From contig JACRJU010000003.1 in assembly GCA_016219925.1 (NCBI GenBank), forward strand, positions 22,505-86,504: a DNA stretch of 64,000 nucleotides, written 5' to 3'. The notes beneath the pieces are model-generated. The model was not told the DNA's origin, searched no databases, and saw nothing but the letters and a program-made list of their open reading frames with translations. Made by a program: the position numbers and the translations under genes. Positions 26,609-64,000 of the stretch are shown one piece after another (position 1 is the stretch's first letter; every line of letters begins with the position of its first letter). This DNA comes from Candidatus Uhrbacteria bacterium. GTDB lineage: Bacteria; Patescibacteriota; Patescibacteriia; UBA9934; GWF2-40-263.

Positions 26609-26655
26609 TGCAAAACCTGCGGCTTTGAGGCATCATTGGGGAGAACCATTCTCCT

Positions 26656-27933: not shown

Positions 27934-27971
27934 TGTTATACACATTGCGACAATCGTTTTATAGAGAAAAG

Positions 27972-28000
27972 AAAAATGCGCGTTAACCTCGCGCATTTTT
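27972..28000. terminator. Bidirectional Rho-independent terminator after serS
   Basis: Perfect palindrome AAAAATGCGCG-TTAACCT-CGCGCATTTTT. Confidence 0.65.
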
Positions 28001-28379: not shown

Positions 28380-30362
28380 ATGAGGTCCACCGGATTTGCG
28401 TTCGTGTACTTCATCCTGATGGTCATCGCTGGTTCGTGCGTGGCCCTGGCCACGTCGTGCGGCACGATCGAAGCGCAGATGGACAGCTCGGGCGTCTATG
28501 GCGACGTCGGCGGCGGTGGCGGACAGGTGGTCATGCATCTGCCGTTCTCCCGCGAGCTCTCGACCGAGTGCGTGCAGGGCGTGAACGGGGCTCACAGCCA
28601 CCGTAGCCGCTCCACGCACTTCGATCTGGACCTCGATACCTCAAACGTGGCCGACGAGCCGGTGTTCGCTCCGGTGTCCGGCATCGCGCGCGTGCACACC
28701 GAAGACCCGTCGCGCAACTTCGGCAACCACGTGAACATCGACAACGGCGACGGAACTTACGTCGTGTGCGCGCATCTGCGCATCGCGGTCGTCAAAGATG
28801 ACCAGGAAGTCGCGCAGGGCGAGCTGATCGGCTACGAAGGATGCACGAGTAACTGTACCGGCGATCATGTGCACATCGGTCTGCATCGTGGCGATGCGGG
28901 CAAGATGGCGCAGATGGGCGAGTCCATCCCGTCGGCGTTCTTCGTCGCCCGCGCCAGCAGCCCGCGCGGGTTTGCCGTTATCGAAGGCAAAGACTTCATG
29001 TGCGGCATCCGCGCCATGGGCGACGATCGCGACGGTCTGTTCTACAGCTCCGCGCTCGACACGCCTCTGTTCCATCCCAACGGCTCGCTCGTGAAGCTTG
29101 CGCTCGACCCGCGGGTGTATCGCATCGACAACGGTCTGGTGCGCCACATCGCAAACGAAGACGTGTTCCGCAGTTACAGCTACACCTTCGAAGATGTCGC
29201 TCTGATCTCCGATGAGGAGATGACTTGTTACGGGGAGGGGAGCGAGATCAGCGAGCACGGCATGGTCAACGCGGTCAATGGTCCGGATGGTGCGCTTTGG
29301 CTCGTAGTCGGCATGTGGGACAGCCCGGCTCGTTACCGCATCCGTATCCGTCAGCAGGGTTGGGAGCAGGTCGTGCGCTCTTGGGGACTCGAGTATGACG
29401 GCATGGATGTCCCCCTTTTCATCGATGTGACTCACGGGTACTGGGTGCATTGGAACGAACGCCCGGGGTATGCGAAGTTTCGCGATGGCACGCTCGTGAA
29501 GGAACGCCGACGCTCGGACATCTACGTCATCTCCGACGGGGTGGCCGTGCCGATCCGCGACTGGGAGACCTATCTCTTGCTCGGCTTTGCCGATCGGACG
29601 TTCCTGACGGTCGGGCCCGGAGTGGTCGCGCAGGTGATGGGATCGGTGGGAAGCTGTAACGGTTCGAGCTGGTGCTTGGATCGGGAGGCGGCGTTCATCT
29701 GCGCAGGAGGATTCGATGGTGAGCCTCCGGCTGACAACACCAAGCCGGGTCCCTCTTTGGATGAAGGCACCGCGCCGCAGGCGCATAGCCCACCGGACAA
29801 CTCCGTACCTCAAAACTCCAACATCCCCGCTCAAGACGACAACCGAGGCGGGACTCAAAATGATCCGTCCGCCGACCCGTCCGAGTCGACACCTCTCGCG
29901 CAGTCCTGCGAAGGCCGTGTGGGGTGCCTCATCGATGCTCGCGGTATCGGCATGGCGCAAACCCTTGCGCTTTCGGATCAGCTCTGGCTGGATCCTGCGA
30001 GCACGAGGTGGGACGCGTACCTGTACGGCTACGGGGACTGCTTCGACAGCTACCCCGACGGCCATCAAGTGATCCACTCCATCGGCGGCTTCTACCAGAT
30101 CGACTTCTCGAGCATCAATCGTTCGTGCACGATGCTCATGACCCTCATCTCCTCGATCGGAACGGACGGCTTGCCGCCCGATGAGCAGATGTCGAACTGG
30201 AATTGGTGGCAGAGCGAGACCTTGTGTCGTCCGGGCACCCCGATCTGCAACCTCATGAACAACGGAACTTCTTGGGAAGCGTGGCTGTTGTCGCTCGCGT
30301 GGGATCCGCAAACGGGTCTGACCGCAACCGGCAACGCGCTGACCAGCAACGCGCAACTCTAG
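28380..30362 (+). CDS. M23 family (LytM-like) metallopeptidase, secreted/lipoprotein-like, with about 450-aa C-terminal extension
   Basis: Start chosen at the ATG with an AGGAG RBS (the ORF track begins 81 nt earlier). Signal sequence FILMVIAGSCVALATSCG; HxxxD (HFDLD) and HxH (GDHVHIGLH) M23 motifs; about 64% GC against a background of about 50%, and the composition switches abruptly at the stop codon. Confidence 0.7.
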   Translation: MRSTGFAFVYFILMVIAGSCVALATSCGTIEAQMDSSGVYGDVGGGGGQVVMHLPFSRELSTECVQGVNGAHSHRSRSTHFDLDLDTSNVADEPVFAPVSGIARVHTEDPSRNFGNHVNIDNGDGTYVVCAHLRIAVVKDDQEVAQGELIGYEGCTSNCTGDHVHIGLHRGDAGKMAQMGESIPSAFFVARASSPRGFAVIEGKDFMCGIRAMGDDRDGLFYSSALDTPLFHPNGSLVKLALDPRVYRIDNGLVRHIANEDVFRSYSYTFEDVALISDEEMTCYGEGSEISEHGMVNAVNGPDGALWLVVGMWDSPARYRIRIRQQGWEQVVRSWGLEYDGMDVPLFIDVTHGYWVHWNERPGYAKFRDGTLVKERRRSDIYVISDGVAVPIRDWETYLLLGFADRTFLTVGPGVVAQVMGSVGSCNGSSWCLDREAAFICAGGFDGEPPADNTKPGPSLDEGTAPQAHSPPDNSVPQNSNIPAQDDNRGGTQNDPSADPSESTPLAQSCEGRVGCLIDARGIGMAQTLALSDQLWLDPASTRWDAYLYGYGDCFDSYPDGHQVIHSIGGFYQIDFSSINRSCTMLMTLISSIGTDGLPPDEQMSNWNWWQSETLCRPGTPICNLMNNGTSWEAWLLSLAWDPQTGLTATGNALTSNAQL

Positions 30363-30410
30363 CGCATCTCCTGTGCACAACATCTGTGCGCAGGTTTTTC
30401 GTTTTTCTGT

Positions 30411-30416
30411 TATAAT
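30411..30416 (+). promoter_or_regulatory. Candidate -10 box (TATAAT) 10 nt upstream of the VirB6-like ATG (leaderless or very short leader)
   Basis: TATAAT at 30411-30416 preceded by direct repeats TCTGTGCACAA/TCTGTGCGCAG; no convincing -35. Confidence 0.25.
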
Positions 30417-30426
30417 TTGTGCAGTT

Positions 30427-33369
30427 ATGAAGCACATTTTCACGCGCATATTTTTGGCGGTACCACGATTGAAGGAGCGTCTGCGCAGTGTGTTAAGCCG
30501 TCCTAAAAACAAAACGGTTGTTTTGACATGTGCCATTCTTGCGGGGACGCTTCTCATTTTGCATCCCGCTTACGCTCTCGGTTTGCCCACAGGAGATGAC
30601 ATCGCCGGAGTCATCGCCTCTATTGCAAACCTGTTTGCCTCTTTGCTCGCTGGCCTCATCACACAGGTGATCGCTTATCTGATTCCGGTGATGCTTTACA
30701 ACAATTTTTCCAACTCGCCTGTCGTGACACAAGGCTGGGCGCTTGTGCGCGACACGGTGAACATGTTTTTTGTGATTGTTTTGATCGTGATCGCGCTTGG
30801 AACGATCTTTGGTCACAAGAAATTTCAATGGCAAACACAAGTTCCGCGCCTTCTCCTCTTTGCGATCGTCATCAATTTTTCTAAAACGCTCGCCGGTATC
30901 ATGATTGACTTCGGACAAGTGGTGATGCTCACGTTTGCCAACGCCCTGCGCGAAATTGCAGCTGGTAACATCATAGAGATGTTCGGTCTTAACAAAGTTT
31001 CCGCATTCACCCCGACAGCCGCGGCCTTCAATCCCACATCGAGCAAGCCTGGCACCAGCGCATGGGATTTGGCATTTGCAAGCCTTGCTGCGGTTTTCAT
31101 CCTGTCTTGGGTGTTGGTCATCATGTTGCTATTGTTTGCCATTTTGTTGTATCGCATTGTCGCGTTGTGGGTTCTCATCGTCCTTGCGCCACTTGCGTGG
31201 TTTGCCGGCGGCGCGGAAATTCTTGGAAGCAGTGCCTATGCTGACTGGTGGAAAAATTTTAAGTGTTTGGTAGCGATCGGCCCCATCGTGACATTTTTTC
31301 TTTGGCTCGCTCTTGCTGTAGCTGGCGCGGCAACGGAAGGATTTGAATCCAGCACCGCTGGCAATCCTGCCAGTTTCTTAACGCAAATTTTTGAATTTCA
31401 GCATTTCATGGGTTTGGTTGTGGGTTCGGCGATGCTTATGGCCGGAATGCAGACCGCTCAACAATTTTGTTCGGTACTGTCTGGAAGTGTTTTGGGCAAA
31501 GCCTTGGGCAAAGCCGCCGCTTTTGGTCCTGGGGCTTTGAGTTTTGGAAAAGGAGCCGCATTAAAAACGACAGGCTGGGGAGCGCGCAAAGTTGGTGGGG
31601 CCGTGAGGGCGGGAGGGCGTGCTGTGGCTTCCTACGGTGGCGCATGGGCGGAAAACAAGAAAGGGCTACGTTTGTTGACTACGCGCGGTCGTGCAGAAAA
31701 ATGGCGCGAGGTTGGGCAATCTTCGGGAAAAGGCGTTTGGGGCAAGACGGTCGGAGTTTTTGCACAACGCCGGGCTGAAGCGGGATACGCGCCGCGCCAT
31801 GAAGAAATTGCAAAAGCAGGGGAGAAGTACAAGAAAGACAGCACGGGCACCAAGATCGCACAGCTTCAACGCTTCGAGCAGACAGGAGCCAAAACTCTTG
31901 GCGGCAAGCGCGAGGCCCAGTCGCTCTTTAAGGATATGCTTGGCGATAAGGACATGCTCAAGAAATATGAAGAGTCTGGTGGCGATGTGAAGGCGTTGTG
32001 GGGCAAGTTTGGAAAGTCCATGGAGCAGGATTTCAAAGGAGATGCGGGGACGCTCGATAAGCTCGCGGGCTTTAAGAAAAAGTATGCCCATGTCACTGGC
32101 TCTTCGAATGATTTGAAAACGTTTGATGATTTCAATGATCTATCCAATCAGGCCGTGCTTGATAAGGACGTTCGTGCTCGCATGGCAAACGCGAAGGTAG
32201 AAATCAAACGCAAAGGCAAACCGGCCGAGGTGATGACAGCCGCAGACGCCGCAGAAAAGGGTTATTTTGGCGCAGACAAACAGGCGTTGTTTAAGGGCGG
32301 ACATGGCGCGCTCGATGATGAACAATTGCGTCGGGCGGACATCGGATCGGTTGTCCAGAATGCCCCCTTAGCCACGACCAATCGCGCGGCCAATTTGGCG
32401 TTCCAAGACAAAAATGTTGGTCGCGTTGGTGAGATTGCTTCATCGCTTCTTGAACAATACAAAAAACCAGACACCACGGATGCGAAGCGGTTTGAAATCG
32501 CGGGGGCGCTTGATAGCCTTAAAGCACAATTGGCCCAGCAACTTTCTTCGGGACAACTCAAAGGGGCTTATGCGAAACAGCTTAAGAGTTTAGACAAAAC
32601 GCTTGATGCGGATCGGGCCGGCGCGGAATCGGCGGCGGGACGCGTTGGATCGGATGGGAAGCCGGTTGGTTCGAATTTTGGCGCCATACCCAAGATCGCT
32701 CAACAAGCAGATCCTTCCGCCTTTATTAAGGCAAACTTTGCAAACGCTTCAGACGCGCGTGTGACGGATGCGAAGGCTCAACTTGGCGGAGAGCTCAATC
32801 AAAAAACAGATGAAGTCTATAAACATTTTCAGGGCATGGTTGGGGCCATTGAGGCGAAGAAAGGTTCGTTAAGCGCAGAAGCGCAAGGGATTCGCAAAGA
32901 GGTGGATGGACTTTGGGATCAATTTAAACAAGTGCGTAAAGCTTCTGAAGATCGCGCCAAAGCCGAAGCAGGCGGTTTGCGCGTGCAGGCACAATCAAAA
33001 CAGAAGGATATTGATCGCAAAGAGGATGATTTCTCGCGTGCCGCATCGCGTGGGGCTGACATTGGAGAATTGTCGAGCATTCGTCAGAGTCTTGATGCCT
33101 TGCGTGCGGATAAAGCCAATCTAGAACATCAGGCGAGTACGGTTGAAAGTTCGGTGGATAAAGATCCACAAGTTATCTCAATCAAGCAGGAGATTGAAAT
33201 CAAAGAACGACAGTTCTCTGAAACGCTTGCTCAAAAGGATGGCATCAGGGCTGATGATGACGAAGCCGCAAAAGCTTTCAAGGATGCCATGGCGCAGTCA
33301 GAGGAAGAAAAACGAAAACTCGAAGAAGCTCTTGCCGCTCTTGAAGCTCTGAAACCGCCTCATGCCTGA
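30427..33369 (+). CDS. VirB6/TrbL-like polytopic membrane protein with long charged coiled-coil C-terminal domain (T4SS-like cluster)
   Basis: About 980 aa. A signal peptide plus roughly 7 TM helices in the first 360 aa, then a K/E/A-rich hydrophilic region of about 600 aa. First gene of a co-directional, overlapping-gene cluster containing PrgI-like and VirB4 genes. An alternative start at 30373 is possible. Confidence 0.5.
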   Translation: MKHIFTRIFLAVPRLKERLRSVLSRPKNKTVVLTCAILAGTLLILHPAYALGLPTGDDIAGVIASIANLFASLLAGLITQVIAYLIPVMLYNNFSNSPVVTQGWALVRDTVNMFFVIVLIVIALGTIFGHKKFQWQTQVPRLLLFAIVINFSKTLAGIMIDFGQVVMLTFANALREIAAGNIIEMFGLNKVSAFTPTAAAFNPTSSKPGTSAWDLAFASLAAVFILSWVLVIMLLLFAILLYRIVALWVLIVLAPLAWFAGGAEILGSSAYADWWKNFKCLVAIGPIVTFFLWLALAVAGAATEGFESSTAGNPASFLTQIFEFQHFMGLVVGSAMLMAGMQTAQQFCSVLSGSVLGKALGKAAAFGPGALSFGKGAALKTTGWGARKVGGAVRAGGRAVASYGGAWAENKKGLRLLTTRGRAEKWREVGQSSGKGVWGKTVGVFAQRRAEAGYAPRHEEIAKAGEKYKKDSTGTKIAQLQRFEQTGAKTLGGKREAQSLFKDMLGDKDMLKKYEESGGDVKALWGKFGKSMEQDFKGDAGTLDKLAGFKKKYAHVTGSSNDLKTFDDFNDLSNQAVLDKDVRARMANAKVEIKRKGKPAEVMTAADAAEKGYFGADKQALFKGGHGALDDEQLRRADIGSVVQNAPLATTNRAANLAFQDKNVGRVGEIASSLLEQYKKPDTTDAKRFEIAGALDSLKAQLAQQLSSGQLKGAYAKQLKSLDKTLDADRAGAESAAGRVGSDGKPVGSNFGAIPKIAQQADPSAFIKANFANASDARVTDAKAQLGGELNQKTDEVYKHFQGMVGAIEAKKGSLSAEAQGIRKEVDGLWDQFKQVRKASEDRAKAEAGGLRVQAQSKQKDIDRKEDDFSRAASRGADIGELSSIRQSLDALRADKANLEHQASTVESSVDKDPQVISIKQEIEIKERQFSETLAQKDGIRADDDEAAKAFKDAMAQSEEEKRKLEEALAALEALKPPHA

Positions 33370-34999
33370 CGTCCCAACTCAACGGCAACTGTCAAAGGAA
33401 GTCCGAGATTATTTTCTCTCGGATGACGTTTTTGCGCAGTATGAAAGAATTGCTGGCGATTATGGATTAAATCAGGAGGAAGCTGTTTCGAGTCTTTCCG
33501 CGCTTGTGTATCAGTTTGTGGCTGGAGTTTTTCCGCTCGACACCCTGCTTAGGAAGATCCAAATGGAGTTTTTGCTCACCACGCCGCGCGCGCAGGAATT
33601 GTTGTCGGCGGTTTTTTTGTACGTCGTCTCTGCCGTCGCGGATCAAGTCAGCGGGCTTTCGCAGGCCCTTGTAGATTGGAAATCCTCTGCGCCACAGGAG
33701 GAAAAAATGACGCCACGCGCTTTCATTCGTCTTTATCTGTCTTCCATTCCAGATCGACTGGATCCGGTTGAGGAACATCGTTTGGAAAATATCTTGTCTC
33801 TTTATCTCCAAGGGGTTCGTTCACGCGAAGAGACGGTCGCTTTTCTTCAAAGACCTCATAAACTCGGCGGCATGGAGATGGAGCAAGATGATGCTATTGA
33901 AATGTTGGCGGAGTTTGAGTTGCGAAAACAGGCCGTCGTTTTTTCGGATGAGATCGAACCCCCTACACCCTCTACCGTCTCCACACCCCCTGCTGTCTCT
34001 ATACCTTCTGCTCCTGCGCTCGATGTTTTTTCCTCAGACGATGCCGAAGAAGTCGCTCATCATGCTCAAAAAGACGCATCCCCATCTTCAAACACCATCT
34101 CGTTGAGCGCCGACGAGCTTTTAGCACGTATCTGTCAAAATGATGCATTTGTTTTTTCTGATCCGCAAAAGCAAAAACGCTGTCAGGAAATTGTGTCCGC
34201 ACGCGTGCGGGATGTGCGTGACGCGTTTCAAACGCGCGCTCTTCTTGAGCAATCAATAGATCAAGGGGGTCTTGGGATTCACGGTCTTCAGCTGGCTCAG
34301 ATGGTTGAGCAAATTGAGCAGGTGGTGGATGCCCAACAACGCGAGTCACAAAAAAATCTTGAGCAAGAGCGCACGGCGTCTTCAGAGCAAAAAAAACAAA
34401 AACAACAAATACAAGATCAGCTTCGCATCAAAGAAGAGCAAGTGCTCGCAAAGCGATATGTTCAGACGACGGGACAACTGCCGACAGAGCCCGTAGCTCC
34501 AGCCGCGCCTCCCTTGGCTCGTGCATCCGCTGCGTTTTCGCCCCAAGCGCAAATCGAAAAACAAGAAGCTCGTGTGGACGCGCAGAAAGTACGCGCTATT
34601 GTGCAGAAGGCCGCTTCAGCTCAACCTCTGCCAACACCTCCCCCCGCGCCGCGCGGTCGCGTTCAGGATATTCAGATGAGTCATCGACTTTCTGGACCTT
34701 TGGAAGAACTTGGAAGCATGGATCTCACCGCTTTTCGCCGTTTATCGCATGAGCCCGCGCAAGCCGCTTCGCGGTTAATGGATTTGGTGGGGTTGCTTGA
34801 AAATCAAAGTTACGAAAAGCGTGTTGAAGGGATTAAAATGTTAAAGCGGTCGCCTTTAATGCACGTGTATGCCTCCGTGACGCAGAAGGCTCTTCTGGGT
34901 GGAAAATCTGTTGATGAGGTATTGTCACAAGATCTCCAAGGGTTGAAGCTTGCCGAGTATCAAGCGCTTATGGAGGTAAACGCATCTTTGCGATTCTGA
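33362..34999 (+). CDS. Hypothetical protein (Pro-rich segment plus Q/K-rich coiled coil), T4SS-like cluster
   Basis: 545 aa; 8-nt overlap with the upstream gene; no recognisable catalytic motif. Confidence 0.4.
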   Translation: MPDVPTQRQLSKEVRDYFLSDDVFAQYERIAGDYGLNQEEAVSSLSALVYQFVAGVFPLDTLLRKIQMEFLLTTPRAQELLSAVFLYVVSAVADQVSGLSQALVDWKSSAPQEEKMTPRAFIRLYLSSIPDRLDPVEEHRLENILSLYLQGVRSREETVAFLQRPHKLGGMEMEQDDAIEMLAEFELRKQAVVFSDEIEPPTPSTVSTPPAVSIPSAPALDVFSSDDAEEVAHHAQKDASPSSNTISLSADELLARICQNDAFVFSDPQKQKRCQEIVSARVRDVRDAFQTRALLEQSIDQGGLGIHGLQLAQMVEQIEQVVDAQQRESQKNLEQERTASSEQKKQKQQIQDQLRIKEEQVLAKRYVQTTGQLPTEPVAPAAPPLARASAAFSPQAQIEKQEARVDAQKVRAIVQKAASAQPLPTPPPAPRGRVQDIQMSHRLSGPLEELGSMDLTAFRRLSHEPAQAASRLMDLVGLLENQSYEKRVEGIKMLKRSPLMHVYASVTQKALLGGKSVDEVLSQDLQGLKLAEYQALMEVNASLRF

Positions 35000-35042
35000 T
35001 ACAATGGAGAGAAGAAAGTAGCAAAGGAGTAAAATAACAGAT

Positions 35043-35474
35043 ATGCCCGATCAGTTCGTTGTTCCACAGTTTATTGATGCCGAAGATAAAATTTTCGGGC
35101 CGATCACGGCTCGGCAGTTTATTATTCTCATGGTGACCGGGCTGATTGACTTTGCGCTTTTCAAACTATTTTCATTTGTGACGTTTCTGCTTATTGGCAT
35201 TCCGGTCATCATCATCGGCGGGACGTTTGCCTTCGGAAAAGTGAATGGACAGGTTTTTCATTACTTCATGTTGAATCTCATCCAAACCGCAAAGAAACCG
35301 AAACTCCGTGTCTGGGAGAAAGTTTACAATGATGCAATATTGCGGTCGTATATTAAAGAAGAGATTCCTCCTCCGCCACCCCCTCCGCCGCATAAAGCGC
35401 CGATCTCTACATCGCGCCTTAATGAGTTGACGTTGGTGGTGAATACGGGCGGAGTGTATCAACCGGAGGAATGA
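35043..35474 (+). CDS. PrgI/VirB3-like small membrane protein
   Basis: 143 aa; N-terminal VPQFIDAEDKIFGPITARQ (PrgI-family signature KIxGPxTxRQ) followed by two TM helices; poly-Pro tract PPPPPPPPH; overlaps the next gene by 4 nt. Confidence 0.55.
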   Translation: MPDQFVVPQFIDAEDKIFGPITARQFIILMVTGLIDFALFKLFSFVTFLLIGIPVIIIGGTFAFGKVNGQVFHYFMLNLIQTAKKPKLRVWEKVYNDAILRSYIKEEIPPPPPPPPHKAPISTSRLNELTLVVNTGGVYQPEE

Positions 35475-36169
35475 GATTTATGCCCGAAATGCAATCCAAA
35501 AAACTGGCAAAATCAAAGCCGGGTCCTGCGACCACGACCTATCTTGATATTTCGGAGATTCGTGATGACATGGTCATTCTCAAAGACGGCACCGTGCGCG
35601 CAGTCCTTTTGGTTTCAAGCATCAACTTTGCGCTCAAGTCCGAAGAGGAACAAGAGGCGATCATTCAGGCCTACATGTCTTTTCTTAACAGTCTCGAATT
35701 CTCTTTGCAGGTGGTCATTCAATCGCGCCGCATGAACATCGATGCGTATATGGCCGCTTTGGGTGAACAGCAACGCAAAACGCAAAACGAACTTCTGCGT
35801 GCGCAGATTGCAGATTATCGAACATTCGTTGAGGAATTGGTTGAACTCGGTCAAATCATGCAAAAGCGATTTTATGTGGTGATGCCCTATGATCCGCTCA
35901 CCAACAAGAAGAAGAATTTTTGGACGCGGCTTGGAGAAGCGATGTCGCCCGCGGCCTCGGCCAAACTCAACCAAAAACAGTTAGCGGATCGTATTGAACA
36001 GCTTTCGCGACGCGTGGAAATCGTGCAAGGTCAGCTCAATAGCATGGGACTCAACAGCGCGCGCTTGGATACGCAAAGTCTGATCGAGCTCTATTACAAT
36101 GCCTATAATCCAGATGTTTTTGAAACAGAAAAGATGGCGGAACTTTCGGAGTTTCAGTTCGAATCATAA
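35471..36169 (+). CDS. VirB4 N-terminal-domain protein (stand-alone)
   Basis: 232 aa; DISEIRDDMVILKDGTVRAVLLVSSINFALKSEEEQEAIIQAYMSFLNSL...RFYVVMPYDP matches the N-terminal domain pattern of Gram-positive VirB4 (TrsE/PrgJ-type). Separated from the ATPase ORF by a TAA stop and a 2-nt gap in a different frame. Confidence 0.5.
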   Translation: MRFMPEMQSKKLAKSKPGPATTTYLDISEIRDDMVILKDGTVRAVLLVSSINFALKSEEEQEAIIQAYMSFLNSLEFSLQVVIQSRRMNIDAYMAALGEQQRKTQNELLRAQIADYRTFVEELVELGQIMQKRFYVVMPYDPLTNKKKNFWTRLGEAMSPAASAKLNQKQLADRIEQLSRRVEIVQGQLNSMGLNSARLDTQSLIELYYNAYNPDVFETEKMAELSEFQFES

Positions 36170-36171
36170 GT

Positions 36172-38271
36172 ATGCCGATTGACATAGGAGCCCTCAAACA
36201 AAAAATGCCCACTCCGCCGCCGGTGAAGCCTAAACAGGTCAAACCGGAGGAGGCGCGCGTGCAGAAAGAACGCGAAGCGCTGGAGGAGGAACGCATTTAT
36301 CGCAAAGGTGTCGTGACCGTGAAAGATATTATTTCACCGGCCGCTTTTGAAGTTCTCCCACGCTCTTTGCGGCTCAACGGCATGTTTTTACGGACGCTCT
36401 TTATCATCAACTATCCGCGTCACATCGGATTGAGGTGGTCATCACCGCTCATTAATCTCAACAAGACGTTCGATGTCGCCATGTTTTTTTATCCGATCAA
36501 GGCCAACATCATCTTAAAACAGCTCCAAAAGAAGGTTGGTGTTTTGGAGGCTGGGATTTTTGCGGGCGCAGAAAAAGGCGCGCCGCGCGACCCGCTTTCC
36601 GAGACGGCCCTGCGCGATGTAGAAGCCTTGCGCGATGCGCTGACTCAAGGCATTGAGCATTTTTTCCAGTTCGCGTTTTATGTGACGATTTACGCGACGT
36701 CCGAGGAAGAGTTAGACCGTTACACCAGTGAAGTCGAAGCGATTTTTGGCAGTAAGCTTATCTACACGAAAGCCGGATTTTATCAGGCAGAGCAGGGGTT
36801 CAATTCCACCATTCCGCTTGGCAACGATGAGTTGATGATCAATTACAACATGAATACGTCGCCGATCGCGGCGTCATTTCCGTTCATTAGCTCCGATCTC
36901 ACTTCCGACAACGGTATTTTGTACGGTATCAACCGCCACAACAACTCGCTAATTTTATTTGATCGTTTCAGCTTGCAAAACGCGAACTCGGTCGTATTCG
37001 CGACCTCCGGCGCGGGAAAATCATACACGATCAAACTTGAGATTTTGCGTTCGCTCATGATGGGAGTGGACGTCATTGTGATTGACCCTGAGATGGAATA
37101 CAAACATCTTTCCGATGCGGTCGGCGGAACTTACATCAATGTCTCGCTCGCTTCAGATGCGAAAGTGAATCCCTTTGATCTTCCGCGCGCGGTCGGAGAG
37201 GGGACAAAAGTTGATGATATTATTCGAAGCGCCATTATCACCCTCAAAGGACTTTTGCGCATCATGATCGGGACGCCGATTGGTGAACAAGGGAAATTGG
37301 GATTCACGCCGGAGGAAGATTCTGTTCTTGATCGCGCGCTCATCGAGACTTACGCCAAAAAGGACATCACCCCTGACTTGATCTCGCTTGCCGACGTGGA
37401 GGCGCCGATCATGCAGGATTTTCAAGATGTGCTCGAAGGCATGGAGGGGGCCGAAGCGATCGTGGCTCGTTTGAAAAAATTTACCGAAGGGACGTTTTCG
37501 GGACTGTTAAATTCTCCGACGACAGTGCAGATGAATAACCAGCTCGTGGTGTTTTCTGTCCGCGATTTGGAAGACGAGCTCCGGCCGGTCGGCATCTATT
37601 CGATCGTGAATTACATTTGGAATGTGACGCGATCGGAGCGCAAGAAACGCGTGTTGGTGATTGATGAAGCGTGGTGGCTGATGACGAACGAAGATTCGGC
37701 GAAGTTTATTTTCGCGCTCGTGAAGCGCGCGCGAAAATACTACTTGGGGGTGACCACGATCACGCAAGATGTCAACGACTTTTTGCGTTCGCCATACGGT
37801 CAGGCGATCGTGACCAACTCCGCGATGCAGGTTCTCCTTAAACAGTCGCCGTCGGCTGTGGATAATGTTCAACAGACATTTAACCTGACGGACGGTGAAA
37901 AATATCTTTTACTGGAGTCGGGAGTAGGGGAGGGGATCTTTTTTGCCGGACAAAAACACGCCGCCATCAAAATCGTCGCTTCTTATACGGAAGATCAAAT
38001 CGTGACAACCAATCCGCAACAGTTGCTCGAAATTGAACGGGCGAAAAAAGAATTTGAAGAACAAGAGACGGCCGCGGAAGCTGGCGAGAAAACGTCGAAA
38101 CCTCCCGCGGGTGGACAGGTCGGTGGGGAACAGGCCGATCGTGCGGATGAAGCGTTCGATATCGAAAAAGAAGCCAAAGAGGCGCAAAATACCGCCGCGG
38201 CCAAGCTGTTGAATCAAGAACAAGTCGGCGAAGCGGAAGCTCAAAAAATTCGTGATTCTCTTCAAGTATGA
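36172..38271 (+). CDS. VirB4/TraC/TrsE-family type IV secretion ATPase
   Basis: 699 aa; Walker A FATSGAGKSYT, Walker B with VirB4 hallmark VLVIDEAWWLM, ITQDVNDF motif; N-terminal region FLRTLFIINYPRHIGLRW typical of Gram-positive VirB4. Confidence 0.85.
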   Translation: MPIDIGALKQKMPTPPPVKPKQVKPEEARVQKEREALEEERIYRKGVVTVKDIISPAAFEVLPRSLRLNGMFLRTLFIINYPRHIGLRWSSPLINLNKTFDVAMFFYPIKANIILKQLQKKVGVLEAGIFAGAEKGAPRDPLSETALRDVEALRDALTQGIEHFFQFAFYVTIYATSEEELDRYTSEVEAIFGSKLIYTKAGFYQAEQGFNSTIPLGNDELMINYNMNTSPIAASFPFISSDLTSDNGILYGINRHNNSLILFDRFSLQNANSVVFATSGAGKSYTIKLEILRSLMMGVDVIVIDPEMEYKHLSDAVGGTYINVSLASDAKVNPFDLPRAVGEGTKVDDIIRSAIITLKGLLRIMIGTPIGEQGKLGFTPEEDSVLDRALIETYAKKDITPDLISLADVEAPIMQDFQDVLEGMEGAEAIVARLKKFTEGTFSGLLNSPTTVQMNNQLVVFSVRDLEDELRPVGIYSIVNYIWNVTRSERKKRVLVIDEAWWLMTNEDSAKFIFALVKRARKYYLGVTTITQDVNDFLRSPYGQAIVTNSAMQVLLKQSPSAVDNVQQTFNLTDGEKYLLLESGVGEGIFFAGQKHAAIKIVASYTEDQIVTTNPQQLLEIERAKKEFEEQETAAEAGEKTSKPPAGGQVGGEQADRADEAFDIEKEAKEAQNTAAAKLLNQEQVGEAEAQKIRDSLQV

Positions 38272-38852
38272 TGGTGACTCGCAAAACACGCCTTATCGTT
38301 CTTGGTTTAATCGCGTTGGTTCTCTTGTTGTTAATCGTTTGGCTCTTCTTGTTTTTAAGAAGGCCGTCTGCCACACCAGCGTCTTCCGAGCCGGTTCTAA
38401 CGGAAGATCAAAAACACATTCCGGAGATTTCTCAACCGACGCTAAAAGATGAGGAACTGAAGAAGGAACAGCAAACGCGAGAAGTTTCCGTGGGAGCCAC
38501 GACGCTTGCTAAATTGTTTGCCGAGCGTTACGGCAGTTATTCCAATGAGGCCCACTTTCAGAATTTGTTTGATGTCATGCCTCTGATGACGGAAAGTTTT
38601 GCCCAAAAGACGAAGGCTTTTGTTGCTTCAACCACTTTACCTGATACGTATTACGGGGTATCGACGCGCGTGTTGACCGTGAAGGTTGAAGCGCTTGATG
38701 ATGCGGCAGGAACCGCAACGATTAGCATGCAAACGCAACGCGAAGTGGCACAAGGGTCTACGCAAAATGTAAACGTTATGTATCAAGAGATTCGTTTGTC
38801 GCTTGTGAAGCAGGCTGGCGTATGGAAGGTGGATTCAGCGGATTGGCAGTAA
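38268..38852 (+). CDS. Bitopic membrane protein, possible VirB8/NTF2-like T4SS component
   Basis: 194 aa; N-terminal TM (LIVLGLIALVLLLLIVWLFLFL) plus a soluble domain of about 150 aa; ATGA overlap with the VirB4 stop. The VirB8 assignment rests only on size, topology and gene position. Confidence 0.3.
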   Translation: MMVTRKTRLIVLGLIALVLLLLIVWLFLFLRRPSATPASSEPVLTEDQKHIPEISQPTLKDEELKKEQQTREVSVGATTLAKLFAERYGSYSNEAHFQNLFDVMPLMTESFAQKTKAFVASTTLPDTYYGVSTRVLTVKVEALDDAAGTATISMQTQREVAQGSTQNVNVMYQEIRLSLVKQAGVWKVDSADWQ

Positions 38853-38854
38853 CA

Positions 38855-38948
38855 AGACCTCTGCAAAACTCGCGATCTTTGCTCTCACGGGCACCCGTTG
38901 ACCCCACTTTCCCTTTTGAGCAAATTTCATCGAGTTGTGCAGAGGTCT
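38855..38948. repeat. MITE-like repeat element copy 2 (terminal inverted repeats AGACCTCTGCAAAACTCG / CGAGTTGTGCAGAGGTCT)
   Basis: Shares the terminal inverted repeats and the internal CGCGATCTTTGCTCTCACGGGCACCC with the copy at 6705-6830; located between the VirB8-like gene and comF. Confidence 0.6.
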
Positions 38949-38969
38949 TTCACGAAAGCATGGCCATGG

Positions 38970-39647
38970 ATGGTTGAAGCGCTATTCCCACGCTTTTGTT
39001 TGGGGTGCCATCGGGAAGGAACCGTGTGGTGCGAGACTTGTTCACAGACGTGGTGGCCGTTGGGGACGCCTTCGGGGTGTCCTTTTTGTAATCGATCTGG
39101 AACGGGCACAACGTGCGTTGATTGTCGGCCGTCGGTTTTTTTGGATGGGTTGAGTGTTTTTGCTTCGTATGGGAATCCGGTTGTTCGCGAAGCAATCGGA
39201 CAATGGAAGTATGTCGGTGATTCTGCGGTGCGTCCGGTGATACGCGAGTGGTTGTTGCGCGCCGCGCCGCGCATGTGTCCGCCCCGTGTGAGCGAAGCAG
39301 TCTGTGCTCCCGTGCCCCTGCATATTTCAAAACGTCGCGCTCGCGGATTTGATCAAGCGGGAGAACTTACGGATTGGTGCGCGGAGATTTTTTCCGTGCC
39401 GGCGTATGATCTGTTGGTGCGTCGGTCATCGAATGTTTCGCAAGCGCATCGTACGCAGGGTCAGCGCGCGGTAGGCGAATTGGATCATCTGTTTAAGATC
39501 CGTGCGGCGATTGATGTTCTGCCGCAAAGGGTGATTTTGTGTGATGATGTTTTTACTTCTGGAGCGACGATGGACAGCGCCGCGCGTTGTTTGAAGGAAG
39601 CAGGTGTCTCTGAAGTTTGGGGATTCGTCCTGGCCAAAGGAGGATAG
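38970..39647 (+). CDS. comF: ComF family protein (ComFC; phosphoribosyltransferase domain, DNA-uptake associated)
   Basis: N-terminal 4-Cys zinc finger (CLGCHREG...CETC; CPFC...CVDC) and PRTase motif VILCDDVFTSGATMD. The probable start is the ATG at 38970, because the ORF-track start at 38898 lies inside the repeat element. Confidence 0.85.
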   Translation: MVEALFPRFCLGCHREGTVWCETCSQTWWPLGTPSGCPFCNRSGTGTTCVDCRPSVFLDGLSVFASYGNPVVREAIGQWKYVGDSAVRPVIREWLLRAAPRMCPPRVSEAVCAPVPLHISKRRARGFDQAGELTDWCAEIFSVPAYDLLVRRSSNVSQAHRTQGQRAVGELDHLFKIRAAIDVLPQRVILCDDVFTSGATMDSAARCLKEAGVSEVWGFVLAKGG

Positions 39648-48209: not shown

Positions 48210-49733
48210 TCATAACCAGAAACATTTTGATCCTCCCGTTGGGGTGTGCGTAGCCGGGTCGAGCGTGACTCCCATTTTTTGTCCGAGTTTTTTTAAATCA
48301 AAATTAGGAGGATCAACGTGGGCGCTCGGGGGTTTCGAGAACTCGCAGTGCCCCCTGACGGTGCTGTCATCAATTTTGAATCCGTATTTTTTACTCAATC
48401 CTTGGATCAATTTTGCGATGTTATCGTATTGAGCTTCCGTATAGGTATATTTTTTCCCTTCCATTCCGTAAAAAATATCAATGCCGACGGAGATATTATT
48501 TTCTTTACAGCAATGATTCATGATATGTCCGACATCTGCCAGCTGAAAAATTTTGCCATCTGTTGTAACAGCGAAATGGCTCCCGATCGGGGTTTGTCTT
48601 TTGGAGGGAGCTCGGACAACCCGTTGCCCGTCTTTGGTGCATCCCTCGTAATTGAATTCGCCGGTTTTTTTACTCTGTTTGCATTTCGCAATTTTGCCGT
48701 AGTGGTAATCAGAAAACCACATGTTGAGCATGCCTTTAACGTTCGTGCCAGGAAATCCCAAATGAAGAATCACTATTTTTACGGCCGATGGCGGCCGTTT
48801 TTTGTTCTTCGTGGCGTTGGAGATATTGCAATCAAGCAGACCGACAAATTTTGTATCAATCGTCACCCCACTGAGTGATTCAGCCACGGAGGGAACAGGA
48901 ATGGTACAAGGACGGGGCGGATCTATGTAGCCATCGCCTTCTTTTTCAAGGGGGGGTTTGACAACCGTCAATCCGCTTCGCGATCCTGGTCCAAAAGGGA
49001 GTTTGACCTGTTCTCCTGATGCCGCCACCGGAGCGGGTTCGTCTGATTCGGTCTCAACCGCATCAGAATGGTCTATCGCTTCGTCTAAGGCAATGCCTTC
49101 GATTGAGGGAATGGTAAGGGGCCGTAGGGTTCCGAGTTTGGGATTGACGATTTCAAGGATCGCGGCGGCCGTCATCACGAGGACTAAGCCAGTCAGACCG
49201 TTTTTGATGCGCTGTTTGGCTTTTTCAAGTTGAGAGGGAGCTCCCGCGGAAAGGACCCATTGCACGCCGCCGACCATGACCAACACAATCGCTAAGAAAG
49301 CCGCTATGCCGACAATGTATTGGTAGGTCCCATTAATATATTGCCCCAAAAAATCTATCTGCAGTTCTCCACCCTTTTGTAAAACAGGGGTAAAAGTGAC
49401 CGTGGGGATTTTTACTTGAAGTTTTGGCAATACGATGCCTGTTGCTGGTTTCGTGACAATGGGATTTGCGGCTTCATGAGCTTTGGAACATTCAATGTAG
49501 AGACTTGCGCCAAATTTTGTTGCCGAGTCCGTGAATTGAACACTCTTAAAAATATCTGCGTATTTGCCTTTACAAATGAGTTCGCACTGCGTTTGCGTTG
49601 CTGAATCCTCGACACCAATTGATTGACAATCATTTTTTTCTCCAAAATAGCAGTAACATGCCGGTGCCGCAAAACTCGTGGCGGGAACAAGCCACGTCAC
49701 CAAAAGTCCTGGCAGCAACAACCATTTGAGCAT
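48210..49733 (-). CDS. Paralogous membrane-anchored protein with the same N-terminal 6-Cys domain plus TM hairpin and a C-terminal N-acetylmuramoyl-L-alanine amidase (amidase_2/PGRP-like) domain
   Basis: 507 aa; the N-terminal 200 aa align with the upstream paralog (CYCYFGEKNDC..., VLPKLQVKIP..TFTPV, TM hairpin). The C-terminal region IVILHLG...GSHFAVTTDGKIFQL...NNISVGIDIFYG...TEAQYDNIAKLIQGLSKKYGF...VRGHCEF fits the amidase_2 fold. Confidence 0.6.
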   Translation of the reverse strand: MLKWLLLPGLLVTWLVPATSFAAPACYCYFGEKNDCQSIGVEDSATQTQCELICKGKYADIFKSVQFTDSATKFGASLYIECSKAHEAANPIVTKPATGIVLPKLQVKIPTVTFTPVLQKGGELQIDFLGQYINGTYQYIVGIAAFLAIVLVMVGGVQWVLSAGAPSQLEKAKQRIKNGLTGLVLVMTAAAILEIVNPKLGTLRPLTIPSIEGIALDEAIDHSDAVETESDEPAPVAASGEQVKLPFGPGSRSGLTVVKPPLEKEGDGYIDPPRPCTIPVPSVAESLSGVTIDTKFVGLLDCNISNATKNKKRPPSAVKIVILHLGFPGTNVKGMLNMWFSDYHYGKIAKCKQSKKTGEFNYEGCTKDGQRVVRAPSKRQTPIGSHFAVTTDGKIFQLADVGHIMNHCCKENNISVGIDIFYGMEGKKYTYTEAQYDNIAKLIQGLSKKYGFKIDDSTVRGHCEFSKPPSAHVDPPNFDLKKLGQKMGVTLDPATHTPTGGSKCFWL

Positions 49734-60508: not shown

Positions 60509-61555
60509 ATGAAATCTGAACTTGAAAAATTGAAACAGGAGTTTGAAGCGGTCATGGAGACGATTACGGATCGCGCGGCTCTTGAACAAGCCAAAAATGA
60601 ATTTTTGGGACGCAAGGGCAGACTGAAGATGCTGTTAGAACAAGTTGCCAAGCTTGCGGGCGAAGAACGCAAAACGATTGGTCAGCTCGCCAACGAGGTA
60701 AAAGAGGGGCTTGAAGCCGCTTACCGTTACAAAGAACATGCTCTGAACGAGGCGCACACAAGCACACAAGCAGAGCGCGAATGGATTGATATCACCGAAC
60801 CCGGACACGCTCCAGAAGAAGGTCATTTGCATTTGACGAGTCAAGCGATTGAAGAGATTACTGATATTTTTTCGCGCGTGGGTTTTACCAGTGTTCGCGC
60901 GCCGGAGATTGATTGGGATTATTACGTCTTCGAGTCGCTCAATATGCCAAAGGATCATCCCGCTCGGGATGATTGGGAGACGTTTTTTGTTGAAGCGCCT
61001 GAAGGAAAAAAAGGCAAGATGGTTTTGACGCCGCATACCTCCAATTCGCAAGTGCGCCAGATGGAATTGGTCAAACCCCCCATTCGGATGATTAATATCA
61101 ACCGCACGTATCGTCGCCAGATCGATATCACCCATATCCCAATGTTTCATCAGTTCGAAGGATTGATGATCGATAAAGGCGTCGCGGTGATTCATCTCAA
61201 AGGCGTGTTGGATTATTTTGCTCGGACTTTTTTTGGACCGGATCGCCGCACGCGCTTGCGTCCGCATCACTTTCGATTCACCGAACCGAGTTTCGAAGTG
61301 GATATTAGTTGTGGAGTGTGCGGGGGTGATCTTTCGAAAAATTGTCGTCTTTGTAAAAGCGGATGGTTAGAATTGGGTGGAGCTGGCATGGTGCATCCGC
61401 GCGTGCTTGAAGCCGGAGGGTTGGATCCAAAAGAGTATTCTGGATTTGCGTTTGGGTGGGGAGTCGAGCGCACGCTCATGATGCGAGAAGGGATCAAAAT
61501 TGATGATATCCGTGTGCTGTACAAAAATGACCTGCGGTTTGTCAGACAGTTCTAA
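60509..61555 (+). CDS. pheS: Phenylalanyl-tRNA synthetase alpha subunit
   Basis: 348 aa; class II motifs (FRFTEPSFEVD, GAGMVHPRVL), FGWGVERTLMM motif 3. Confidence 0.9.
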   Translation: MKSELEKLKQEFEAVMETITDRAALEQAKNEFLGRKGRLKMLLEQVAKLAGEERKTIGQLANEVKEGLEAAYRYKEHALNEAHTSTQAEREWIDITEPGHAPEEGHLHLTSQAIEEITDIFSRVGFTSVRAPEIDWDYYVFESLNMPKDHPARDDWETFFVEAPEGKKGKMVLTPHTSNSQVRQMELVKPPIRMININRTYRRQIDITHIPMFHQFEGLMIDKGVAVIHLKGVLDYFARTFFGPDRRTRLRPHHFRFTEPSFEVDISCGVCGGDLSKNCRLCKSGWLELGGAGMVHPRVLEAGGLDPKEYSGFAFGWGVERTLMMREGIKIDDIRVLYKNDLRFVRQF

Positions 61556-61573
61556 ATAATTTGAAACCAGAGA

Positions 61574-61954
61574 TTGGTTATATCGCTTCTGAATCACGGG
61601 AGGAACCCTATGGATTCAGAAGCGATATAACCAATCACTGACACACTCTTCAGTTCTGAATCACGAGAGCTCCTGGCACAAGCCCTGTGAATCACGGGAG
61701 GAACCCTATGGATTCAGAAGCGATATAACAAATCACTGATTCACTCTAACCTGTTGATCTATTTTATTTTTTTGGTGATTTAAGTGGGTGCGAGGGCATA
61801 CACATGAGTGAATCCATAGGGTTCCTCCCGTGATTCACCCATGTGTATGCCCTCGCACCATCCCTCCTTTGATCATTAATTGAGTGAAACCACATGCCTA
61901 TTTGTAAACCCATAGGGTTCCTCCCGTGGTTTACAAATAGGCATGTGGTTTCAC
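61574..61954. repeat. Array of four long hairpins (61574-61634, 61687-61744, 61787-61859, 61884-61954) with unrelated 20-27-bp stems but a shared loop motif CACGGGAGGAACCCTATGG (two forward, two reverse)
   Basis: Direct reading: each element is a near-perfect palindrome; the conserved loop core occurs at 61594-61612 and 61693-61711 (forward) and 61814-61832 and 61911-61929 (reverse complement). Confidence 0.7.
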
Positions 61955-61955
61955 G

Positions 61956-64000
61956 ATGATTATGAACATTCTTGCCTCCTACAACTGGATCAAAGAATAT
62001 CTCGACACCGATCTTTCAGCGGAAGACTTCGCACGCAAAACAACCGCGGCGGGAAATTCTGTTGAACACATGGATCGTGTTGCCGATCGATTCGCAAACA
62101 TGATTGTTGGGTTTGTCAAAGAGGTAAAGCCACATCCAAATGCGGACAAACTTCAGATTGCCCAAACCGATATTGGAAAAGAAACGGTCGAGATTGTGTG
62201 CGGAGGAGTGAATCTGACGGAAGGGATGCGCGTGATCGTGGGTCTGCCGGGCGCTCGTGTGAAATGGCATGGAGAAGGAGAACTCGTTGAACTTGTGAAA
62301 ACGAAGATCCGCGGGGTCGAAAGCCACGGGATGATTTGTGCGGTGGAGGAGATTGGTTTTGAAAAACTTGCGACCGGCAAGAAGGATATTTGGAACATTA
62401 CAGCGCTCACTGATGCCAAACCCGGAACACCCATTGTCCAAGCTCTCGAACTCGACGAAGTGATTTTTGACATTGAGGTCACGAGTAACCGTCCCGATTG
62501 TCGATCCATCATCGGTCAGGCGCGCGAAGGGGCGGCTGTCACTTCTTCTGTCTTTGTGAAACCCGCGTTGGTGGTCAAAGGATCTCGAGGCGACTGCGGG
62601 TGGAACATCGAAGTCAAAGAACCCGTGCTCTGTCCGAAGTATTCCGCCGTGCTTGTCGATAACATCAAAGTTGGACCATCCCCGTGGTGGCTTCAGAAGA
62701 AGCTTTTGCTTGCTGGCTATCGTCCCATCAACAATGTGGTTGATATTACCAATGTTGTTTTGCATGAATATGGCCAGCCACTTCATGCGTTTGATGCGGA
62801 CAAATTGTACGGAGAGAAAATCGTCGTGCGCAAGGCGAAAAAACAGGAAAAGTTTCTGGCGCTTGATGGCAAAGATTACGAACTCTCAAGCGAGATGTTG
62901 GTCATTGCGGATGCAAAAAATGCGGTCGCGGTGGCGGGAGTGATGGGCGGCGAGTTCACAGGCACGACCGAACAGACCACGCGCGTCTTGATCGAGTCGG
63001 CAACTTTTGATTCTCTCTCTGTGCGCCGCACCGCTCGCGCGCTCAATCTCTATTCCGATTCACAATTGTTGTTTGAAAAGGGACTGTCTGTGGAAGCAAC
63101 CGGCCCGGCGCTTGAACGGGCCATCGAACTGTTGGGGCAAGTTGCTGGGGGAAACCTCGTCTCAGATGTGATGGTCCAAGAAGCCAAACCGTACGAACCT
63201 CGCATGTTTCCCTTTGATCCTTCAAGCGCAAATCGGTTGATGGGTCTTGAGTTGAGCGAAGCAGAGATGCGAGAGATTTTGGAGCGTTTAGGATTTGAAG
63301 CTAAAGGTGATCAGTTTATTGTTCCGTATTGGCGCGATCGCGATATTGAAAACAGCGTTGATTTCGTTGAAGAGATTGCGCGCGTCTATGGGTATGATCG
63401 TTTCCCATCCGTCCTCCCTTCGGGGGACTTGTCGCTTAATCGACAAGTCCCTGCGCTCGTGTGGACCCTTCGGGCCAAGACTCTTTTGTCTGGCATGGGG
63501 TTGAGCGAAGTTTACAGTTATAGCTTTGTGAGTGAGTCTCAACTCGAACGCTTCGGTGTTTCTCCGAAGGGTGCCGTTTTATTACGCAATCCATTAAGTG
63601 CAGAGTTTGCCTACATGCGCCCCTCACTTATTCCAAGCTTGCTGACAACCATCGAGCAGAATCAAGCGCGTTTTCCCGTGGCAGATTTTTTCGAACTGGC
63701 TCCAGTTTATACTCCACAAAAAAATGGTCTCCCGCAGGAAACGCTTCGGCTGGTTTTTGGGGTTTATGGAAAGGATGGGCGACAAGCTTTCTTGCGGGCC
63801 AAAGGATTTGTCCAGCGGTTTTTCCGTCAAACCGGACTCGGTGAGGTGGTCCTCAAGCGATTAGAAAAATCTACGGCCTTCCATTTGGGAAGATCCGCTA
63901 CCGTTGTCCACGACAAACACGAAGTCGGAACCATCGGACAAGTCTCGCAGGCCATGGCTAAAATGTTTGGGCTTGATGTGCAGGCGGTTGTGGTCGATCT
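61956..64000 (+). CDS. pheT: Phenylalanyl-tRNA synthetase beta subunit (5' partial, continues beyond window)
   Basis: Open frame from ATG 61956 (MIMNILASYNWIKEYL...) to the window end with no stop. tRNA-binding OB domain (VGFVKEVKPHPNADKLQIAQ), B3/4 and B5 domains (SNRPDC, PSPWWLQKKLLLAGYRPINNVVDITN). Confidence 0.85.
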   Translation, partial: MIMNILASYNWIKEYLDTDLSAEDFARKTTAAGNSVEHMDRVADRFANMIVGFVKEVKPHPNADKLQIAQTDIGKETVEIVCGGVNLTEGMRVIVGLPGARVKWHGEGELVELVKTKIRGVESHGMICAVEEIGFEKLATGKKDIWNITALTDAKPGTPIVQALELDEVIFDIEVTSNRPDCRSIIGQAREGAAVTSSVFVKPALVVKGSRGDCGWNIEVKEPVLCPKYSAVLVDNIKVGPSPWWLQKKLLLAGYRPINNVVDITNVVLHEYGQPLHAFDADKLYGEKIVVRKAKKQEKFLALDGKDYELSSEMLVIADAKNAVAVAGVMGGEFTGTTEQTTRVLIESATFDSLSVRRTARALNLYSDSQLLFEKGLSVEATGPALERAIELLGQVAGGNLVSDVMVQEAKPYEPRMFPFDPSSANRLMGLELSEAEMREILERLGFEAKGDQFIVPYWRDRDIENSVDFVEEIARVYGYDRFPSVLPSGDLSLNRQVPALVWTLRAKTLLSGMGLSEVYSYSFVSESQLERFGVSPKGAVLLRNPLSAEFAYMRPSLIPSLLTTIEQNQARFPVADFFELAPVYTPQKNGLPQETLRLVFGVYGKDGRQAFLRAKGFVQRFFRQTGLGEVVLKRLEKSTAFHLGRSATVVHDKHEVGTIGQVSQAMAKMFGLDVQAVVVD

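Follow-up and report, generated by a model that had tools for sequence, protein, structure and literature searches.

Hairpins with an invariant loop and freely varying stems in Candidatus Uhrbacteria: a candidate mobile palindromic element between pheS and pheT

In a 64,000-nucleotide (nt) stretch of a Candidatus Uhrbacteria genome (contig JACRJU010000003.1, positions 22,505–86,504; called the window hereafter, with positions counted from its first letter), the genes for the two subunits of phenylalanine-tRNA ligase, pheS and pheT, are separated by 400 nt in which long hairpins share one loop sequence and differ in their stems. This arrangement raises the question of what the hairpins are and what keeps their loop constant. 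An initial annotation described four hairpins with unrelated stems around a loop that reads as a Shine–Dalgarno (SD) sequence followed by ATG, and proposed that the loop is bound by a protein or the ribosome, or that the hairpins are a mobile palindromic element. The feature is real, no family tested here explains it, and its conservation is inverted, with an invariant loop on free stems. On balance, the hairpins are probably copies of a non-autonomous, non-coding mobile palindromic DNA element of ~71–85 nt, recognized via its folded tip, with arms that are free in sequence as long as they pair and whose identity to each other is maintained in the DNA itself. The element occurs in some Candidatus Uhrbacteria.

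The spacer (61556–61955) follows pheS (60509–61555, forward strand), which encodes the alpha subunit, and precedes pheT (61962–64000, forward strand, truncated by the window end), which encodes the beta subunit. The flanking genes had been named correctly, as indicated by the Pfam domains of pheS (Phe_tRNA-synt_N and tRNA-synt_2d) and pheT (tRNA_bind, B3_4, B5 and tRNA_synthFbeta) and by the NCBI name of a protein identical to PheS (P0001). The pheT start at 61962 yields an N-terminus (MNIL...) that aligns with those of relatives, and an alternative start is found at 61956. An 18-mer, ACGGGAGGAACCCTATGG, occurs four times in the spacer, in two forward (61596 and 61694) and two reverse-complement copies (61814 and 61910), as first noted, and nowhere else in the 64 kb, where 0.05 occurrences are expected by chance. 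The conserved unit is a 17-nt loop with a C–G closing pair, and not the 19-nt loop described originally. In the predicted fold, GGG pairs with CCC inside the loop and AGGAA is left at the tip.

Three of the four copies form strong hairpins. Hairpin 1 (61568–61640, forward strand) carries the loop ACGGGAGGAACCCTATG at 61596–61612 between arms 61568–61595 and 61613–61640, with 27 of 28 positions paired (DNA fold −29.3 kcal/mol, z = −12.4; 78 bits with covariance model R1, see below). Hairpin 3 (61787–61859, minus strand; loop 61815–61831) has arms at 61787–61814 and 61832–61859, again with 27 of 28 positions paired (−33.4 kcal/mol, z = −12.2; 85 bits), and hairpin 4 (61884–61954, minus strand; loop 61911–61927) has a perfect 27-bp stem formed by 61884–61910 and 61928–61954 (−32.7 kcal/mol, z = −12.1; 80 bits). 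The latter ends 1 nt upstream of the first ATG and 7 nt upstream of the conserved pheT start. Folded as single-stranded DNA, none of the three was equalled by any of 200 shuffles. The stems, reported as perfect and 20–27 bp long, are indeed self-complementary, with a length of 27–28 bp and one mismatch in two of the three. The second copy (61685–61738, forward strand) keeps an intact loop (61694–61710) and does not fold into a hairpin (z = −0.69); R1 matches it at model positions 25–61 only. It is a rearranged half copy: from the loop rightwards it repeats hairpin 1, right arm and flank, at 95% and with a 98-nt period, and its left base, CTGTGAATC, originates elsewhere. A broken left junction lies in addition at 61654–61669 (forward strand), TTCTGAATCACGAGAG, composed of TTCTGAATC and the first seven loop bases with one mismatch. 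Hairpins 3 and 4 are related to each other, with a period of 96 nt, distal arms ~57% identical in register and flanks that also look similar when aligned in register and judged by eye. The 6–7 bp adjoining the loop are alike between the window copies. What the spacer contains is therefore three intact copies together with two or more broken or rearranged pieces, and not four independent hairpins.

The initial annotation suggested searching for the motif elsewhere and asking whether it always sits in hairpin loops. Metagenome contigs were scanned for the exact 19-mer (the 17-mer loop plus closing pair), which was found at 13 loci representing 12 distinct sites on nine contigs of two Joint Genome Institute (JGI) samples, two loci being identical between the samples. 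At all 12 sites the motif is the loop of a 30–33 bp hairpin with a stem sequence of its own. The apparent exception (L004, the same site as L008) is a complete hairpin split by a TA-flanked MITE (miniature inverted-repeat transposable element). This MITE (L004 1199–1363, ~165 nt), which has terminal inverted repeats beginning GACCTGTTGCCATATAA and a TA duplication, sits in one arm of the hairpin copy and is also seen at the ends of L001, L008 and L011; three other contig positions carry 100% identical copies. At another site, L010 5005–5091, the family copy is adjoined by an unrelated perfect 25-bp hairpin with loop AATGGCAA (L010 5093–5150). The covariance model R1, made from 14 copies, found one further member in a third genome, L068, directly after prfA. 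It has a perfect 29-bp stem and the same 17-mer with one extra loop base, and its closing base differs. R1 found no further copy, decayed ones included, in ~710 kb of candidate phyla radiation (CPR) sequence, and neither half sites nor a full-length parent element with an open reading frame (ORF) after the loop ATG were seen in 565 kb. The exact 19-mer with its closing pair had no match in species-representative genomes, a query that is too strict, since the closing base varies in L068. Beyond the window, the 13 sites belong to two further Uhrbacteria lineages and the motif is always the tip of a 29–33 bp hairpin in a tiny intergenic gap. The total is 16 independent copies in at least three Uhrbacteria lineages, without a single substitution in the 17-mer; carriers are 3 of ~60 CPR genome fragments examined.

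The hairpins are absent from the corresponding sites of related genomes. The pheS–pheT spacer measures 1–4 nt in nine of the closest relatives (L016–L020, L022, L026, L028 and L029) and 1 nt in L066 and L067; because the site is empty in these 11 relatives, the whole 400 nt of the window represents an insertion. The window PheS is 75–80% identical to proteins of Candidatus Uhrbacteria metagenome-assembled genomes, and a database protein of exactly its sequence is annotated as Candidatus Uhrbacteria, a lineage of the CPR (Patescibacteria). Sampling around the carrier lineages is sparse: the nearest PheS found is 80% identical, the nearest NusG 89%, and the nearest relative of one flanking hypothetical protein 71%. 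Likewise, the sites between nusG and rplK, downstream of gyrB and downstream of prfA, occupied in one lineage, are empty in relatives with 85–89% identical NusG. On a contig of the other JGI sample, with a PheS (P0019) 76% identical to that of the window, the pheS–pheT junction is empty; if the P0019 contigs and the L004/L009 contig come from one organism, the family would be common to two Uhrbacteria lineages at different loci. The complete hairpin, including both arms, is thus the inserted unit, found at different loci in different lineages and in either orientation. Copies also pile up, recombine and nest at one site, as seen from the chimeric and broken copies of the window and from the copy interrupted by the MITE.

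The copies fill very short intergenic gaps and are never inside genes, often beginning 5–26 nt past a stop codon and ending 6–29 nt ahead of the next start. Their neighbours are housekeeping genes (pheS/pheT, nusG/rplK, gyrB, prfA and der/pth), many kb apart. Among 15 copies scored for orientation, nine run with the neighbouring gene or genes, four run against them, one lies between convergent genes and one received no call, and the loop is equally invariant in every orientation class. In L007 the element is inserted just 3′ of a small stem-loop upstream of rplK (GCCTGGTTGC...GGGAATCCAG, L007 10340–10372). This stem-loop, which recurs at the equivalent positions of L068, L070, L074 and L076, is likely to be a ribosomal-protein leader.

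Selfish DNA lands repeatedly at the pheS–pheT junction, which is a hot spot for it. Unrelated inserts are found there in other Uhrbacteria and CPR genomes (L015, L021, L023–L025, L027, L043, L046, L061 and L063). A GIY-YIG ORF lies between 30-nt inverted repeats in L024, L025 and L027, and an ORF6N ORF is accompanied by GGTCACAAATTGTGACC palindromes in L023 and L061; the remaining inserts at the junction of relatives are small membrane-like ORFs and solo hairpins.

The covariation analysis proposed in the initial annotation was performed on a 14-copy alignment, in which 91% of the cells are paired, against 32–41% when the partners are slid. Changes have occurred on both sides in 28 of the 32 stem pairs, and G–U pairs are almost absent. 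Leaving out a recurrent 2×2 TC/TC internal loop, there are 15 mismatches in ~400 bp, 13 of them of transition type, and on the mRNA-sense strand nine are A·C and three G·U. This pattern points to a DNA palindrome that is alike on both strands, rather than to an RNA helix under selection. Constraint on the loop is far above that on the stems, as had been argued, yet the description of the stems as unrelated, with complete turnover, was overstated. The distal arms of the metagenome copies retain 40% in-register identity, against 25–27% in shifted or shuffled controls, with some pairs at 57–67%, so that subfamilies can be recognized; among the window copies the values range from 14 to 57%. Several stem columns are biased, the 5′ arm being pyrimidine-rich and the 3′ arm purine-rich. 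The stems therefore appear to be very diverged and fully compensated, rather than unrelated. Arm length is uniform per lineage (27–28 bp in the window, 29 bp in L068, 30–33 bp in the metagenome copies), and the conserved part comprises the loop, the closing pair and ~6–9 bp beneath, and nothing else. In 8 of the 12 metagenome copies the left arm has TC instead of GA, which creates a TC/TC mismatch three bp below the loop that reads as tandem G·A on the opposite strand.

Three origins of the stems were considered and rejected. Copying of the flanks into the arms, as suggested in the initial annotation, fails on two counts: when every arm was compared by short-word BLAST with the window and the loci, the arms matched only themselves, and the ancestral junction of just 1–4 nt offers no template. 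Insertion of the loop core into existing palindromes is at odds with the uniform arm lengths, with the presence of just one other long palindrome in the 64 kb and with the lack of any prior spacer between pheS and pheT. Finally, nothing marks the stems as phage-derived spacers: none of the three window stems had an exact 19–20 nt match in IMG/VR, and a BLAST of the pheS–pheT spacer against a phage collection returned no match.

A mobile palindromic element, one of the two options first put forward, is the best reading of these observations: in 11 relatives nothing is inserted at the site, and different lineages have their copies at different loci. In the mechanism that we propose, a trans-acting enzyme would recognize the element by its folded tip, that is, the invariant 17-nt loop with its GGG/CCC mini-stem and the ~9 bp beneath, usually including the 2×2 TC/TC internal loop in one lineage. 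The distal 18–23 bp would need only to pair, so their sequence could drift. The two arms may be homogenized by template switching or by gene conversion between them, for which quasipalindrome correction in Escherichia coli provides an analogue; homogenization at the DNA level would produce Watson–Crick pairing on both strands with almost no G·T. If only copy lineages with an intact tip multiply, and if these streamlined genomes soon lose their dead copies by deletion, all present copies would be expected to keep the loop. A survey of perfect inverted repeats reports Uhrbacteria as one of the phyla with the most of them (PMC13155455). That survey would have missed the present family, since it counted spacers up to 8 nt only.

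Several observations weigh against this interpretation. A mobilizing gene was not seen in the carrier-genome fragments; tblastn with IS200 TnpA, IS608 TnpA and an E. coli RAYT gave nothing at E < 0.1, a weak test that covers those fragments only. A target-site duplication is not clearly seen: the flanks of a copy share a longest repeat of 4.15 on average, mismatched flanks one of 3.75 (p = 0.08; 6-mers occur twice, at L005 and L007b). Neither the stem ends nor the adjoining 10 nt on each side show a conserved motif. No pair of dispersed copies is closely similar (arm identity at most 67%), so that signs of recent bursts are lacking. That the covariance model found no decayed copy in the ~710 kb would be unusual if the DNA is selfish, and suits a host function just as well. 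In addition, the loop is a textbook ribosome-binding site, which a mobile-element model treats as incidental, and the sample comprises 16 independent copies only.

Literature searches on the motif and on comparable elements of Patescibacteria found nothing relevant, and comparison with described hairpin families shows partial likenesses. REP and REPIN sequences are short non-coding intergenic palindromes that form hairpins and are mobilized by RAYT transposases of the Y1 HUH type (PMC3116915, PMC3733652). They share further features with the present hairpins: either orientation, local clusters, co-transcription within operons, a non-autonomous nature and long persistence (PMC3116915, PMC3733652). 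In REP and REPIN sequences, however, the stem and a terminal GTAG/CGTC tag are conserved within a genome while the loop or spacer varies, whereas the present family has one loop and many stems, with distal arms 40% identical in the metagenome copies and 14–57% in the window. No terminal tag, no RAYT gene, which REP sequences usually flank, and no hundreds of copies were seen in the carrier-genome fragments; the GTAG at the start of L007a is a chance occurrence. The same metagenome genome also contains a REP-like family of the classical kind, TGGGGTCAGGCCTTCGATCGTCGATT (L002 1986–2048 and 2673–2735, L003 650–704, L010 6621–6686), with identical 26–31 bp stems and variable 3–9 nt loops, a conservation that is the opposite of that of the loop-invariant hairpins.

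The attC sites of integrons are also diverse imperfect palindromes with compensated pairing. They are recognized as folded single strands by their structure and a few fixed bases, an asymmetric unpaired feature marking the strand. Their conserved part is the base of the stem (R″/R′, RYYYAAC/GTTRRRY), the tip is variable, and they flank gene cassettes next to intI. In the present hairpins it is the tip that is conserved and the base that varies, R″/R′ cores are absent from the stem base, and housekeeping genes take the place of cassettes and intI, no integrase being seen in the gene neighbourhoods that were listed. Bacterial MITEs, such as the Correia elements of Neisseria, resemble the present hairpins in being small, non-autonomous and inserted between genes transcribed together, where their transcripts fold into long hairpins and can alter the expression of neighbouring genes. 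MITEs have terminal inverted repeats conserved across the family and duplicate their target (TA in the case of Correia); here the outer arm sequences differ in every copy and no duplication is demonstrable. Hairpin repeats of organelles (RHE of sponge mitochondria, Volvox palindromes) are likewise intergenic and invade compact genomes, but they belong to other hosts and are defined by overall sequence similarity (PMC2800124, PMC2670323).

The initial annotation was right that the hairpins are neither a CRISPR array nor simple terminators. CRISPR arrays have direct repeats of 25–40 nt and unique spacers of about the same length, and the present module is found in both orientations between mutually complementary sequences, mostly as singletons. 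Intrinsic terminators require a G+C-rich hairpin and a T run; no terminator-like site was predicted in 61400–62100 and no T run follows any of the window stems. Classical terminators are present in one carrier lineage (L007). The spacer contains no sigma-70-like promoter.

The most serious competitor of a mobile element, possible though rather unlikely, is an RNA element used by the host, whose loop would restart downstream translation after an insertion had broken the coupling of two genes, or which would act as an mRNA processing or stability hairpin. The loop contains GGGAGG, 6 nt and then ATG, an ideal spacing, and the forward copies of the window open the ORF MDSEAI*, as first reported. 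In an unrelated viral contig, an IMG/VR match to the 17-mer (L064) provides an ordinary gene with its ribosome-binding site and start; it has no hairpin and was discarded as a chance match to the family, and it shows that the same 17 nt can serve an ordinary gene. The copies stand 6–29 nt ahead of start codons in tight operons, and, of the six forward copies beside a start codon, two have a loop ORF whose stop overlaps the next start as ATGA (L005 ~590–600 and L007a, at L007 ~7850–7860), an observation made post hoc on small numbers, with P roughly estimated at about 0.03. In the window, an ORF from the ATG at 61895, in the left arm of hairpin 4 (61895–61959), stops 2 nt ahead of the pheT ATG. 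Such overlaps may restore translational coupling, and an invariant loop without decayed copies would suit a host function. On the other hand, four of the 15 scored copies are antisense to their neighbours, with a reverse-complement loop that has neither SD nor ATG and is equally conserved, and four of the six forward copies lack the coupling geometry. The ORFs from the loop ATG range from 6 to 92 codons, their only common residues (MDSQ-like) being fixed by the conserved stem base. As there is no shared peptide and the reversed quarter of the copies is equally conserved, the SD and ATG are not a conserved coding signal. The excess of A·C over G·U among the sense-strand mismatches, a predicted fold that pairs the GGG of the SD with CCC, and the stacking of three to four copies in one spacer are also unlike an RNA regulator.

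A DNA signal of the host, in which a hairpin or cruciform tip binds a chromosomal protein involved in replication, segregation, repair, uptake or a similar process and each copy is under selection, would account for the independence from orientation, for the Watson–Crick pairing on both strands and for a loop that is intact in every copy, with no decayed copies found. We consider it unlikely, given that the positions are not conserved between related genomes, that the distribution is patchy (the 3 carriers among ~60 fragments), that clustered and broken copies share a single site and that the density is low and irregular, with four copies at one site in 64 kb.

Also improbable is the idea that the hairpins are substrates of an undescribed tip-recognizing system: either an "inverse attC" route of structure-specific single-stranded DNA recombination or transposition in the CPR, or dispersed hairpin-RNA genes with the loop as a handle and a 20-bp duplex that bears information. 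To our knowledge, no described enzyme recognizes its substrate by the tip in this mode.

Guide-like hairpin RNAs, resembling TIGR units or natural short-hairpin RNAs, with the loop as a protein handle and the variable 20-bp stem as the targeting part, are very unlikely. Stems that vary and yet are always palindromic beside a constant module invite this comparison, and TIGR arrays, which are tandem units found in CPR hosts, have variable but consistently palindromic stems (PMC12045711). The loops of TIGR arrays, however, hold two variable spacers of 8–12 nt between box C/D motifs, next to a tas gene encoding a Nop domain (PMC12045711). The invariant 17-nt loop, found in 16 of 16 copies, is too short for two such spacers, most copies are dispersed singletons among housekeeping genes, and no tas gene adjoins the window locus, where pheS is preceded by glmM, tyrS and rseP and followed by pheT; TIGR-Tas was rejected on loop content and gene context. 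The resemblance to microRNA precursors in Rfam is sub-threshold: only tRNAs reach the threshold in the window, and the matches in 61500–62000 are those of generic hairpins. The stems match no phage or other DNA searched, and their 40% in-register identity and pyrimidine/purine asymmetry are unlike captured spacers.

An assembly artefact, or a purely local origin in which a single hairpin was duplicated in tandem, is hardly credible: partial tandem duplication does link copies 1 and 2, hairpins 3 and 4 share their period, similar-looking flanks and 57% of their arms, as the initial annotation had warned might be the case, and within hairpin 1 there is a break in a Logan assembly of this locus, but the motif is not absent elsewhere, the loop-in-hairpin unit being found, always intergenic, at 13 other loci from independent assemblies, other samples and other lineages, two of them identical in two JGI samples.

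Other features of the window were recorded in passing. A hairpin at 8341–8396, between a DUF4870 gene and prfB, has a 23-bp near-perfect stem and the loop GAGGAAACGA (DNA fold z = −10.3). Its proximal arm, TCTGTTGT, and the GAGGAA of its loop faintly resemble the loop-invariant family, and the covariance model gives no match; it may be a decayed or related member. At 8439–8509 a short ORF ends with CTT TGA C, with GGAGG ahead of it (8494–8498), and a long ORF resumes in another frame at 8551–9561, an arrangement that resembles the canonical site of programmed +1 frameshifting in prfB, the gene for release factor 2. The G+C content is raised (0.55–0.64) at ~24700–39000 and 48210–49733. The raised region contains an M23 peptidase (28299–30362), a TraG/VirB4-like P-loop ATPase (36172–38271) and several large ORFs without a Pfam match, and a protein with type IV secretion system (T4SS)-pilin and amidase domains is found further along; the region may be an island related to type IV secretion or conjugation. 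An ORF of 3209 residues (12590–22219) has no Pfam match at E ≤ 0.001.

The significance of these mobile-element-like hairpins lies first in their tip. The loop-conserved pattern is the opposite of that of known bacterial palindromic repeats (REP/REPIN, MITEs), whose stems are kept and whose loops vary, and it holds across lineages whose flanking DNA no longer aligns. An invariant loop on free stems points to recognition of the folded tip, with the stem as a sequence-free spacer. If a tip-recognizing system exists, the apex of the hairpin, rather than its base, would be the protein handle. The diverged stems constitute a natural experiment in the compensatory evolution of DNA palindromes, and a comparison of carrier and non-carrier Uhrbacteria offers a phylogenetic-profiling handle on the partner gene. 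Should the ribosome-binding site of the loop turn out to work, the element would act as a portable cassette for restarting translation. The locus further illustrates how pairs of essential genes with coupled translation, of which pheS and pheT are one, tolerate repeated invasion in the streamlined genomes of the CPR.

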